Assembly (NCBI GenBank): GCA_044222065.1
Contig: JBGAOA010000005.1
Coordinates: forward strand, 22,971 to 86,970
Length of the DNA: 64,000 bases
From: Candidatus Eiseniibacteriota bacterium
Lineage (GTDB): Bacteria > Eisenbacteria > RBG-16-71-46
Reading direction: 5' to 3'
The position numbers are program-made. Below, in pieces: positions 19,901 to 22,900 of the stretch (positions within the stretch are counted from its first letter, which is position 1; each line of letters opens with the position of its first letter).

Positions 19901-22900
19901 CGATTTCGCGCTCGGTCTGCTGGAGCAGGCCGAGTCGTGGCTCGCAGAATCCGAGGATCCCGACGTCGCGGAGCGCGCGGAAGCGCTGCGGCGCGATCTC
20001 GAGCGCCAGTACGTCGCAGTCTCGCTCTCGACCTGCAACGAATTCCGTGCGCTCGAAGACGCGAACCGGCTGTTCCGCGAGACCGCGGACATGGATGGTC
20101 TGCTGAACCAGGCGGTGCGGCTCGCCGTCGAACACGCCGGCGGTGACCGCGGATTCGTCGCGTTCACGAACGGCGGCGCGCGGCTCGACGTCGTCGCGCA
20201 GCACGGACTCGGACGCGAACGTGCGCGCCGCATCCTGCGCGTGCTCGAACAAGTCGGCGGCAGCCGGCTCGCTGAGAACGGTCCTCTGTTCTCGAGCCGA
20301 GTCACTGCCGATCCGCGGTTCTCGGTCTCGGTCGTGGACGCGCTCGATGGCGTCGGCTCGCTCGTCTGCGTCCCGCTCAACTTCCCATCGCAGTCGGTAG
20401 GACTCGTCTACGTGGATCGGCTCAACGACAGCCTGCTCGGCGCCTTCAAGCAGCGCGAGCTCAACCTGCTCGCCGTGCTCGCGAACAGCGCCGCGGTGGC
20501 GATCGTCGAAGCGCAGCGTTCACGCCTGCTCGAAGAGAATCGGCAGTTGCGTGATCGCCTCAAGCCGAGCCCCGGCATGGAGCGGGTGGTCTCTCAGTCC
20601 CGTGAGATCCAGAGCATCCTGCAGCTGCTGCAGAAGGTGAGCGACAGCCCGGCCACGGTGCTCTTCATGGGCGAGACTGGGACCGGCAAGGGGCTGCTCG
20701 CGCAGGTCGTGCACGAGAGCTCGGCGCGGCGCGACCGCCCCTTCATCCAGGTCAATTGCGCGGCGATCCCCGAGCACCTGCTCGAGAGCGAGCTGTTCGG
20801 CTACGTGCAGGGCGCCTTCACCGGCGCGATGCGCGACAAGACCGGGCTTTTCGAGGAGGCCGAAGGCGGGACGTTGTTCCTCGATGAGATCGAGAAGATT
20901 CCCGAGACCGTGCAGGCCAAGCTTCTCCACGTGCTGGATCGCAGCGAGATTCGCCCCGTCGGAGCGGCGCGCAGTCGACGCGTGGACACGCGAGTGATCT
21001 GCGCGACGGGATGCGATCTCCGCGATCGGATCCGGGAGCGCCGGTTCCTCGAGGACCTGTACTACCGGCTGAACGACATCACGGTGCGCGTGCCTCCGCT
21101 TCGCGAACGCCGCGAGGACATCCCGCTCCTCGCGCAGTACTTCCTCACGAGCTTCTCGCGCCAGATGGATCGTTCGATTGCGGGCTTCTCCGCGCCCGTG
21201 ATGCAGGCGCTGCTCGAGCACACGTGGCCCGGCAACGTGCGTGAGCTCGAGAAAACCGTGAAGCGCATGGTGGTGCTCGCGGATGACGGCGCGACGCTGG
21301 ACGTGGATCTTCTTCCGCCCGACCTCCGGGAGAGCACGCGGCCGGCGAGCACGGAGCTTCGGGTGGTGAGCCGCACGCTCAAGTCGAACGTCGTGAATCT
21401 CGAGCGGCAGCTGATCGCCGAGGCGCTCGAAAGAACCCGCTGGAACAAGACGCGGGCCGCGCGTGAACTCGGGCTCAGCTATCCGACCCTGCTCGCCAAG
21501 ATCCGGAGCTTCCAACTCGAGCGGCAGCGCGGCGGCTGACAAACAACTGAAGTCTCCGACTAGCAAGTCGCTTAATAGAAATCCCGAAGCCCCGCAGTCA
21601 CTTAGGCTGCGGGGCTTCGTCATGAAAGCGGCTTGAGGATTTCCGGTGCTTTCGTGGCTCGGAATCCTGCGCTTGTTGGATTTCGCCCATTCCAGTTAAT
21701 AATTGATTAGCAAGCATTTAGGACATATTTGTGCGACGTCGCCGTTCATGGCACGACGAGTGCCTATACGTGTGCCTCGGAGGGGGGGGACCTCCACAAA
21801 ATCCAGCAGAGCACCGCTGGAACACGATCTAGGCTAGCCGGCTCTGTAGGGCTCGGTCGAGGGTACGAGCCCCGTCATCCGACAACGTATCGAACCCTAC
21901 GTCCGGCTAGCTTGGAGTGAATTCAACGGTCCGGGAAGTGGCGGGCCTGGGTGAATCGACGAAGTTCGGTCCCGGTTATCTTCGCGCGATCCCCGCTCTG
22001 CGGCTTCCCGGCTTTTCTTGCAGTCGAGACACCGGCTTCACGCGATACAGGCCAGCACTGGGGGATGTCCAGGCTTGTGTCTGCGACCGAGGCCGGTGTC
22101 TCACTTCTTGGGCCCCGGCGGCTCCCCGACCGTGCACTGTGGCGCCCCTTGCACACCTGCGTCGCCGGCGCTGCGCGGCACCCCCTGAATCGCGGCGCAA
22201 ACCGCTCAAAGCGGCCCATTTTCACTGATCTTTCCCGGCCCCGAGCCCCCGCATCTCGCTGGCACGTGGGTTGCCCTCCAAGCGATCGTCCATTTCACGC
22301 GAGGAGGACCCATGAAAGCTCCAGTCCTGCTGATCGTCGCCGCCGCGCTGCTCGCGGGCTGTGATGACGATCATGTCTCGGCCCCCCGCGACGTCACCCC
22401 TCCGGCCGCGCCGCGGGGCGTCTACAGCGTGACCGGCGATCAGTCCGTGCGGGTCTCGTGGCTCGCGAACACCGAAATCGATGTGGCTGGCTATCGGATC
22501 TACCAGGGTCCTTGCGCCACCGGTCCTTCGTGCCCCTACGACCTCGTCGGCTCGACCACCGCCACGACCTACACCGTCACCGGACTTGCGAACGGCAGCA
22601 CCCGCTACTTCGCGGTTGCGGCGTTCGACCGCGCGGGAAATGAGAGTCCGCTGTCCTACGAAGACGTCTTCGACACGCCGCGCCCTGCCGGATTCGGCGC
22701 GACGCTGGGTGATGCGGTGGACGAGCCTGCGATCAGCGGCTGGGACTTCTCCGCCGCCTCGCGCCGGGCGTGGGACCACGCGGAGACCGACGTGTACTTC
22801 AGCTACTCCGGCGGCGTCTTCCGAATGATCGCGCCCTTCACGGATACGGACATCCAGGACGCGGGATATGCGGCGAGCCTCGATGCCGTGGACTTCGCTC

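Follow-up and report, generated by a model that had tools for sequence, protein, structure and literature searches.

A sigma-54-associated small RNA gene that follows a peptide/TPR-activator operon in Candidatus Eisenbacteria, with predicted pairing to its operon leader and to a sister RNA

In Candidatus Eisenbacteria, an operon for a peptide and a TPR activator is followed by the gene for RNA A, a stand-alone small RNA with its own promoter, conserved structure, a probable terminator and no conserved reading frame. It occupies ~332 nt (~21779..22110, inferred ends) of the window, a stretch of 64,000 nt in which all features described here are on the + strand. The evidence supports a sigma-54-driven non-coding RNA. 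Sequence comparison among relatives yields RNA A, its structure, its complementarities to the leader of its own operon and to RNA B (the C64 RNA, from a paralogous circuit 60-110 kb away), and the covariation of RNA B with its own leader. RNA A is probably a trans-acting base-pairing sRNA that a sigma-54 activator would produce in response to a peptide; it would damp its own operon, and RNA A and RNA B would titrate or destroy each other.

The RNA A gene, its surroundings and its coverage by RNA contigs

The operon is preceded by a sigma-70-type promoter (TTGACC, 18 nt, GATACT; 17890..17919), read from sequence, whose -10 hexamer is also present in most relatives. Its first gene (18030..18347) encodes a small exported protein of 105 aa, a putative signal precursor with a signal-peptide-like start and a GEPD core; it has no Pfam family, and in relatives a matching ORF is found upstream of the activator. 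The activator itself (18453..21539, 1028 aa) combines TPR, GAF, sigma-54 AAA+ and HTH domains (Pfam TPR_12, GAF, Sigma54_activat, HTH_8). Its ribosome-binding region (18437..18476) includes GAGGGTTCG, which resembles the tip of RNA A, and a C-run at codons 5-8 (ATC CCC CCC GAT, conserved in 27, 27, 24 and 27 of 27 sequences). A hairpin 3' of the activator stop (21579..21620), with a weak Rfam Pxr match (26.9 bits, threshold 80), is a probable terminator between the operon and RNA A.

RNA A has a sigma-54-type -24/-12 promoter matching the consensus (TGGCAC-N5-GTGC, 21749..21763), at a constant distance from the 5' hairpin in 48/48 loci examined, two of which carry a variant base. In a scan of the genome collection, which selected for the RNA A 5' hairpin, a sigma-54 AAA+ gene lies just upstream in 70/70 loci with an intact -12 element, and is missing there in 7 of the 8 loci without one. 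Judged by its sequence, this is a -24/-12 promoter adjoining an enhancer-binding-protein gene, as in Qrr1/Pxr/CrcZ-type sRNAs, and its position suggests that the neighbouring activator drives it. A separate sigma-54-type promoter (22260..22274) serves the downstream FN3-lipoprotein operon and is present 3' of RNA A in 41/48 loci, so RNA A is not the leader of the FN3 gene. A small ORF within RNA A was also rejected, a Shine-Dalgarno-preceded start occurring at a shared place in at most 6 of 66 RNAs.

RNA A begins with a hairpin (21779..21795) that carries a G-rich loop, the predicted seed for a C-rich site in the leader of its own operon. This hairpin, invariant except for the length of its G-run, is the element common to all versions of RNA A across the phylum, which the 14-mer at the domain tip is not. 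A spacer hairpin (21802..21821) that varies in length and sequence and is missing in G004 leads to the central domain (21828..21916), which consists of a 14-bp closing helix (21828-21841/21903-21916), an inner covarying helix and a three-way junction, with compensatory changes in 10 of 29 predicted pairs (36 sequences). The domain-tip hairpin GGG-UACGAG-CCC (21861..21874) is the 14-mer complementary to RNA B. A variable middle hairpin region (21920..22020), lacking conserved sequence in an alignment of 37, is followed by the 3' domain (22026..22110), a long terminal hairpin with an invariant G-rich loop (22058-22067) and a U-rich tail. Here 15 of 19 pairs show compensatory change (35 sequences), and the 12 nt after the hairpin contain on average 5.2 T (34 loci). 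It is a probable terminator, although a consensus terminator scan did not call the terminal helix. The fold z-score is -6.1 for the whole RNA and -3.7 for 21774-21920 alone.

RNA contigs from four metatranscriptomic studies cover the gene without mismatch (21788-22074, 21790-22098, 21791-22093 and 21815-22163). All four runs examined by contig cover RNA A, and 21564-21747 is uncovered in the same four runs. In 14 RNA runs from five studies, the share of sequence words found from a 651-nt stretch was 0.43-0.51; RNA A alone predicts 0.49. These data give a hint of expression, as such contigs reveal no strand, true ends or level and RNA libraries may contain DNA.

Much of this agrees with the initial annotation, which had proposed a sigma-54 promoter, an invariant 5' hairpin, compensatory changes, conservation in relatives (here a match in 36/36 same-family genomes) and no Rfam match. 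In eight loci, RNA A gave 0 matches at the gathering threshold (Rfam 15, including Qrr, Pxr, CrcZ, CsrB, 6S and SRP), and nothing was found inside RNA A up to E 10. The closing helix is present as described, but it encloses 61 nt, and the whole domain, at 89 nt, falls slightly below the ~100 nt given for it. The 3' end, which had been called a guess, is now placed by the covarying terminal helix (22026-22036/22092-22102), the U-rich tail, and RNA contig ends at 22074-22098 in three of the four studies.

Complementarity to operon leaders and between the two RNAs

Over its first ~10 bases, each RNA is complementary to a stretch of its own operon leader, and in both leaders this site precedes the peptide start by ~100 nt (median 98-100 nt). 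This relationship, new in this analysis, holds at the sequence level for both RNAs, with much stronger covariation for RNA B. The 5' end of RNA B pairs 9/9 with its own leader in 44 of 58 genomes, and in 53 at 8 or more positions; a run of at least 9 bp is found in 43/56 leaders, compared with 4/1120 shuffled ones. RNA B and its leader have changed together in G004, G007, G067, G077 and five sister-family genomes, amounting to at least four events on a quick tree. In these changed pairs, cognate runs are 9-13, against swap means of 5.6-8.7. The RNA B 5' end may accordingly be described as a conserved seed with a conserved, covarying target complement, as would be expected of a base-pairing trans-acting sRNA. 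For RNA A, GGTCCC, the complement of its 5' end, occurs in 22/28 leaders (0.014-0.03 expected), and GTCCCC in 13 of 26 distant loci (0.07 expected). The match is conserved without covariation, and the RNA A 5' hairpin is itself invariant. Most relatives have a full GGTCCCCTC-type site (median 97.5 nt before the peptide start). It is absent in G012 and G025 and degenerate in the present genome, where only the CCCCTC half is kept (17933..17948); the seed is predicted to be half buried in its own hairpin. Since blocking the leader sites produced no predicted change in Shine-Dalgarno access, the sign of the leader pairing is not predicted, and activation by Shine-Dalgarno unmasking was set aside on the same result.

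The RNA A tip is complementary to a segment of RNA B. In the 4.21-Mb genome the 14-mer has two copies, one at the RNA A tip and one, reversed, inside RNA B at C64:50763, with no further conserved copies. When RNA A and RNA B of the same genome are compared, their longest perfect complement averages 13.3 nt, and 48 of the 55 family pairs reach 11 or more, whereas random genome windows average 8.6, reach at least 11 in 20/600 and never reach 14. By this measure, RNA A has the extended complement to a conserved sister-sRNA segment that a sponge would have. The RNA A loop is exact in 79/83 family genomes and its four central bases are 0.94-0.98 unpaired (average over 27 RNAs); the RNA B core is exact in 57/70, CUCGUA is kept in 66/70, and the segment is predicted to be only partly unpaired (0.3-0.7). 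A matched one-base insertion is present in A and B of G008, G031 and G012, which form one clade, with two G.U pairs in G012. In the sister family, the RNA A stem stays but its loop differs in 7/7, and RNA B lacks the segment in 8/8. The exact RNA B 16-mer is absent outside these two families (206 genomes), where seven one-mismatch matches occur. RNA B has no Rfam match, and its SRP-like look found no support.

The invariant exposed loop, the single compensatory insertion event, the two G.U-compatible changes and the joint loss in the sister family make A-B pairing plausible. With the invariance in 79/83, the one insertion clade and the joint loss as its sequence basis, we consider the pairing moderately supported and likely. 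The 14-nt reverse complement, its length above chance and its loss or change in the sister family had all been pointed out in the initial annotation and were found again. The matched insertion is likewise real, though in three genomes of one clade and not in one genome. The claim of base-pairing survives in moderated form: A-B covariation is a single event, the duplex is broken with RNA A unchanged in G010 (two central pairs) and G027 (RNA B segment lost), and the complement of each RNA to its own leader had been overlooked. An energy swap is a one-sided test here, the inserted RNA A pairing, by calculated energy, with standard RNA B as well as with its own (-27 to -30 versus -25 to -28 kcal/mol). 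For G024, the only other loop variant, no RNA B could be located to test covariation a second time, and two pattern matches proved to be unrelated DNA.

Competing explanations and the search for further targets

An unlikely competitor keeps A-B pairing and gives it a direction. RNA A would imitate, as a decoy, the ribosome-binding site of its own activator: the RNA B CUCGUACCC(UC) segment would block the Shine-Dalgarno region of activator A (GAGGGUUCGA, one U-U mismatch), and the near copy in RNA A (GAGGGUACGA) would soak up RNA B, resulting in positive feedback and cross-inhibition. The presence, by eye, of the activator-start motif in 18/28 family and 0/3 sister-family genomes, where the B segment is also missing, fits this proposal, as does genus g22, in which the A-B complement of 15-17 nt spans exactly the shared flank. 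However, G027 keeps the activator site without the RNA B segment, the RNA B of the insertion clade still pairs with RNA A but forms only 5-6 bp with the mRNA, and the same bases, as read from the sequences, can pair internally with the C-run of the mRNA.

Equally unlikely is an incidental 14-nt complement, with RNA A a genuine sRNA whose targets lie in its own operon or elsewhere. Two GGG-N6-CCC hairpins would be kept separately, the RNA A loop for a protein ligand and the RNA B segment for pairing with the 5' end of RNA B itself. This hairpin form accounts for 6 of the 14 complementary positions, the RNA B segment can pair with its own 5' end, the G010 variant fits this better, and the broken duplexes of G027 and G010 with RNA A unchanged also agree with it. 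On the other hand, the RNA B segment is kept where the RNA B 5' end is lost (G023, G089, G093 and G096), the insertion in one clade is matched, and the RNA A loop is free to vary in the sister family, where its partner is absent.

Much less probable is a role like that of CsrB or RsmZ, in which RNA A would act as a protein sponge and take up CsrA by way of GGA motifs in its hairpin loops. CsrA is present in 5/5 genomes, and GGA stands at the end of both invariant RNA A loops; in the 3' loop this end reads GGAUGU, similar to the CsrA consensus. Many repeated GGA/ANGGA loop motifs would be expected of such RNAs, but RNA A lacks them (9.6 GGA per 355 nt versus 7.3 TCC, 1.1 ANGGA, only two conserved), and leader complementarity would be left unexplained. 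In the Eisenbacteria small-RNA literature, a CsrA paper predicts few functional CsrA in this group (PMC13443453). Least probable of all is that the complementary motifs act as DNA, as binding sites of one protein or operon-flanking inverted repeats in opposite orientation. In double-stranded DNA such a motif is one and the same site as its reverse complement, and inverted repeats covary too, but the RNA A motif forms the tip of an RNA helix that covaries, both RNA B sites show parallel identical changes with the activator recognition helix unchanged (G007, G067, G077 and the sister family), the imperfect RNA B-leader pairs within core positions 1-8 are G.U, in four genomes, and never A.C (terminal position 9 has four A.C pairs), no locus read carries a flipped cassette, and no further conserved copies of the 14-mer exist.

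A genome-wide scan of 3403 rough gene starts with eight seeds gave no outlier, and the two candidates considered failed, an RsgA-like gene having the site in 0/11 relatives and an NtrC-like gene in 0/5; hence the invariant 3' loop has no assigned target, and no output gene emerged beyond the two operons. An 11-nt match of an RNA B loop to the peptide-A coding region was discarded (GACCGGG upstream of the activator in 4/57 loci, at scattered places), and a loose family-wide sequence pattern was swamped by chance matches. Hfq (PF17209) was found in 0/5 genomes, each at least 94% complete, with 5/14 controls positive, so the usual matchmaker is missing.

Proposed mechanism, related systems and significance

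In the favoured mechanism, the exported peptide would switch the TPR-GAF activator, which would fire the sigma-54 promoter behind its own gene so that RNA A accumulates. The G-rich 5' end of RNA A would pair with the C-rich site that precedes the peptide start codon by ~100 nt, and perhaps also with the C-run in activator codons 5-8, most likely lowering translation or stability of its own operon as negative feedback. RNA B would act likewise on its own leader. Within the family, RNA A would have gained the exposed UACGAG loop that pairs with RNA B CUCGUA, extending to 12-17 bp, and the two RNAs may titrate or destroy each other through this loop-loop duplex, coupling the circuits. Promoter use by the activator, pairing in vivo and the sign of every effect are proposals of this model. 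A bolder version, held only tentatively, has the paralogous sRNAs each shutting the ribosome-standby site of their own operon with their first ten bases and annihilating each other through kissing loops, with RNA A mimicking the activator ribosome-binding site. In this version, two peptide quorum signals of a candidate phylum with diderm cells would be compared, or toggled between, by RNA alone.

CrcZ of Pseudomonas, similar in length to RNA A, is also encoded next after its sigma-54 activator, cbrB. CrcZ and CsrB/RsmZ carry many repeated protein-binding motifs; RNA A, unlike these, has unique invariant motifs with RNA complements. In Bacillus subtilis, the pairing of RosA with RoxS/FsrA sets G-rich against C-rich sequence. 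The RosA-RoxS/FsrA system resembles the proposed RNA A-RNA B interaction in sRNA-sRNA pairing without a known RNA hub protein, but it serves metabolic control by CcpA and Rex, with no peptide circuit, no sigma-54 and unrelated sequence (PMC8216469). IstR-1 base-pairs with tisB mRNA at a single-stranded site that precedes the structured ribosome-binding site of this small-protein gene by ~100 nt; that system is a toxin-antitoxin pair under LexA (PMC6690012). A standby role of the RNA A/B sites is putative.

By analogy, the best reading is that RNA A works like Qrr/QrrX and sits like Pxr. In Vibrio cholerae, a signal-controlled activator turns on the Qrr1-4 sRNAs, which also repress translation of the activator, and a second sRNA, QrrX, whose gene directly follows that of its transcription factor, base-pairs with the Qrr sRNAs and inactivates them (PMC9732341). 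On the proposed mechanism, the likeness is a signal-driven activator producing an sRNA that feeds back on it, and a second sRNA inactivating the first. The same text has Qrr and QrrX requiring Hfq, not found in Eisenbacteria, and QrrT as LysR-type, whereas RNA A and RNA B both follow sigma-54 TPR activators. The latter RNAs are 330-430 nt long and highly structured, their feedback site lies ~100 nt upstream of a peptide gene, and their pairing looks mutual between two parallel circuits, unlike what is described for Qrr/QrrX; RNA A has no sequence or Rfam similarity to these and, with Hfq in 0/5 genomes, falls outside the Hfq-dependent class. Pxr of Myxococcus xanthus is likewise a multi-stem sRNA that has a sigma-54 promoter of its own and lies immediately 3' of nla19, a sigma-54 activator gene, but it is 108 nt long and follows a response regulator (PMC5568312), and the Rfam Pxr model does not match RNA A. 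Both RNAs are best read as Hfq-independent, and RNA A as belonging to neither Qrr/QrrX nor Pxr.

RNA A represents an uncatalogued RNA family spanning the whole candidate phylum. No earlier description was found in literature coverage that left out most subscription journals and supplements, in which a motif catalogue could hold it. Natural compensatory changes point to its likely targets, which is unusual for an orphan RNA of uncultured bacteria. The predicted contacts are short and natural variant pairs exist (G004, G007, G067 and G008/G031), making them testable in vitro or in E. coli with no need for a culture of the source organism. If the proposal is right, TPR peptide signalling, sigma-54 activation, sRNA feedback and sRNA-sRNA cross-talk would be joined in one Hfq-free module.

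RNA A and its spread

The features that the initial annotation placed at 21749-22115 are all present in the sequence, namely a -24/-12 promoter (21749-21763), a 5' hairpin (21779-21795), a 14-bp closing helix (21828-21841 paired with 21903-21916) enclosing 61 nt, and the 14-mer GGGTACGAGCCCCG (21861-21874). They belong to RNA A, a structured RNA of ~332 nt (~21779-22110, plus strand), whose 3' domain forms a long hairpin that carries an invariant G-rich loop and is followed by a U-rich tail. Upstream are a 1028-aa TPR-GAF-AAA+-HTH activator and, before it, a 105-aa ORF whose start resembles a signal peptide. 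An ArsR/MarR-like HTH gene and a Ppx/GppA phosphatase (16275-17893) are found directly upstream of this peptide operon. The region 22260-24731 contains a second sigma-54 promoter, driving an FN3 lipoprotein and a DUF4384 protein; this separate promoter is conserved beside RNA A in 41 of 48 loci, and the operon is a candidate direct output of activator A.

RNA A is almost certainly a real RNA gene. Its predicted fold beats all shuffles (z of -3.7 for the 5' part and -6.1 for the whole), all 36 same-family genomes sampled first matched it, a strict pattern then detected it in 46 of another 52 from the family (several of which are incomplete), and its promoter-to-hairpin distance is fixed in 48 of 48 loci. 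Alignments with about one sequence per genus, retaining 36 (central domain) and 35 (3' domain) of 45, contain compensatory changes in 10 of 29 and 15 of 19 pairs, respectively, figures that count sequences rather than events and include kin that are not independent. A conserved reading frame was sought in RNA A and not found, and Rfam gave no match. The closing helix is near-invariant in sequence, beyond what pairing demands, and contains a palindrome, which suggests a protein or nuclease site, possibly for processing of RNA A into shorter forms.

A scan of species genomes for the promoter and 5' hairpin yielded at least 119 loci, mostly labelled Candidatus Eisenbacteria, of which 41 were left out for short flanks and 78 kept; these overlap with, and are not independent of, the genomes compared individually. 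Among the 78 matches listed, a sigma-54 AAA+ gene lies just upstream in all 70 loci with an intact -12 element, and is absent from 7 of the 8 without one. Distant versions of RNA A measure ~140 to 500 nt and have only the 5' hairpin in common, with the 3' loop kept in some, while the central domain is limited to the source genome's order. A compact ~140-nt form with its own conserved body and U-tail occurs in distant Eisenbacteria (loci L159, L180, L187, L193, L198, L204, L208, L218, L221, L227, L231 and L235), the records under other taxon labels probably reflecting labelling or binning differences. In the sister family (L069-L075), RNA A reaches ~500 nt with extra CCCGGUC motifs, and CCCGGUC appears twice in RNA B, the RNA of the paralogous circuit.

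RNA data hint at expression. Words of 21600-22250 are present in 14 runs from five studies at a share of 0.43-0.51, where 0.49 is expected if RNA A alone is present. In four runs, one per study, mismatch-free contigs cover 21788-22074, 21790-22098, 21791-22093 and 21815-22163, none covering 21564-21747. Because such contigs give no strand, ends or level, they are a hint rather than proof; short stretches of the operon and downstream genes also occur in these data.

Complementarity of the RNA 5' ends to their own leaders

The only other copy of the 14-mer in the 4.21-Mb genome is reversed, at C64:50763 (contig C64 of the source genome), inside RNA B. It lies 219 nt past another -24/-12 promoter, which stands behind a second TPR/sigma-54 activator and a small upstream ORF. 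RNA B (C64:50544-50995; L001:10544-10995) is ~426 nt long and has further near-invariant motifs. One of these, GCACCUCCAUC, lies in a loop and resembles the 16S anti-Shine-Dalgarno tail; the others are a G-rich loop, GGGGUGA, which is SD-like but lacks a start codon, and a 20-mer that 35 of 52 genomes share exactly. Activator B (C64:47844-50245; L001:7845-10246) is frameshifted within its AAA+ domain into 624 and 176 aa, where most relatives have an open frame of ~800-930 aa, indicating either an assembly error or a recently disabled circuit. A cytochrome c gene and then a tRNA gene (anticodon UGU, L001:11594-11666) follow RNA B, and both activator loci are otherwise ordinary chromosome. Genome G011 carries two copies of the B circuit (L047, L080), each with RNA and leader site.

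Each RNA likely feeds back on its own leader. RNA B begins with GGAUACGGG, which is complementary to CCCGUAUCC in the leader of its own peptide-activator operon, a relation that the initial annotation missed. Of 58 genomes, 44 match at 9/9 positions and 53 at 8 or more; six others, in which no B 5' motif could be recognised, were excluded and, by eye, the leader site is missing in five of these and altered in one. With the promoter located in 56 of 64 genomes, runs of at least 9 bp occur in 43 of the 56, compared with 4 of 1120 shuffles. The 5' end and leader change together in G004 (at two positions), G007, G067, G077 and five sister-family genomes; on the tree, the change shared by G067 and G077 requires two events and the other two to three. 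Cognate runs span 9-13 bp and swaps average 5.6-8.7, and the activator B recognition helix is unchanged in G007, G067, G077 and the sister family. The site falls within a large loop in the three predicted folds inspected; UCACCCC, immediately adjoining it, complements the GGGGUGA of RNA B.

The layout is the same for RNA A, whose 5' end GGGGGGACC complements GGTCCC. This word lies within 70 nt of the operon -10 box in 22 of 28 genomes (0.014-0.03 expected; three further genomes have no located -10 box), and GTCCCC occurs in 13 of 26 distant loci (0.07 expected). Four of the six exceptions, including the source genome, keep a CCCCTC-type run, which G012 and G025 lack. Covariation is not visible between RNA A and its leader because the RNA A hairpin is invariant. 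Both leader sites lie a median of 98-100 nt before the peptide start, and the peptide-A Shine-Dalgarno is predicted to be mostly paired (0.17 unpaired).

Complementarity between RNA A and RNA B

From sequence comparison, RNA A and RNA B probably also pair with each other in vivo. Their longest perfect complement averages 13.3 nt and reaches at least 11 in 48 of 55 family genomes with both RNAs, compared with a mean of 8.6 for RNA A and 600 random windows as long as B, of which 20 reach 11 and none reaches 14. In A, the segment forms the hairpin GGG-UACGAG-CCC at the central-domain tip, with its four central loop bases predicted 0.94-0.98 unpaired; the B segment is likewise a GGG-N6-CCC hairpin, less open than A's. 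Six positions thus come free, and the loop and flanks are the informative part. Of 83 family genomes, 79 have exactly this A loop while the surrounding helices vary freely; 57 of 70 copies of B carry the exact 11-mer and 66 carry CUCGUA, and B retains the segment even where it has lost the alternative partner, its own 5' end. Three genomes have a matched insertion, U in A and one base in B, and in one of them, G012, two U pair with GG. These form one clade (support 98, quick tree), indicating a single event plus two wobble-compatible changes; swaps reduce the run from 12-13 to 8-10 bp, although the energy cost is one-sided. Sister-family genomes keep the A stem with a different loop (7 of 7), and the segment is absent from their RNA B (8 of 8). 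Against pairing, G010 disrupts the duplex middle, G007 and G104 place a bulge in it, and G027 lacks the B segment with A unchanged; RNA B was looked for and not found in G024, the only other A-loop variant. In locus L022 (G031), CTCGTAACCC in the FN3 leader is complementary to the A loop with the insertion in the same genome; it was not seen in the other leaders compared and is possibly due to chance.

A rival explanation is that RNA A is a decoy, copying its own activator's ribosome-binding site and soaking up RNA B, since this site (GAGGGTTCG in 18 of 28, by eye) closely matches the tip of RNA A. Other contacts are weaker. The twice-repeated CCGGUCA of RNA B has a complement, GACCGGAG, where activator B starts in ~33 of 56 family rows (by eye) but in 0 of 8 sister-family rows, though B there keeps CCGGUCA. 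Codons 5-8 of activator A are ATC CCC CCC GAT in 27, 27, 24 and 27 of 27 genes, which is suggestive given CCC use of 4-93% at its other conserved prolines (above 70% at three of 15), and would fit pairing with either of the two G-rich RNA A loops or a within-mRNA hairpin. A target of the RNA A 3' loop was sought and not found.

A putative pair of linked circuits

The activator, presumably gated by its own exported peptide, would transcribe the RNA behind it, whose 5' end would pair with the operon leader and damp both signal and receptor; in the family of the source genome, A and B would pair loop to loop and neutralise each other, linking the circuits. With signs left open, we consider this whole model somewhat probable. 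Repression is favoured over activation solely by analogy and because, in the fold model, the start region becomes no more open when the site is blocked. In the eight genomes that have both circuits on a single contig, the two share a strand and are separated by 61-110 kb. Hfq was sought and found in none of five genomes, CsrA in all five, and GC-rich duplexes of 9-17 bp may need no chaperone.

The 100-nt leader distance recalls the tisB standby site blocked by IstR-1 (PMC6690012), the proposed circuit resembles the feedback of Qrr on luxO combined with the QrrX sponge (PMC9732341), the placement of RNA A resembles Pxr behind nla19 (PMC5568312), and RosA exemplifies two sRNAs pairing where a hub protein is lacking (PMC8216469). 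RNA A falls outside Qrr/QrrX, Pxr and RosA when judged by Rfam score, Hfq or size, and the literature searched, which misses most subscription papers and all supplements, contained no prior description. RNA A is judged to be a new sRNA family, and its proposed regulatory logic a variant, itself new, on a known one.
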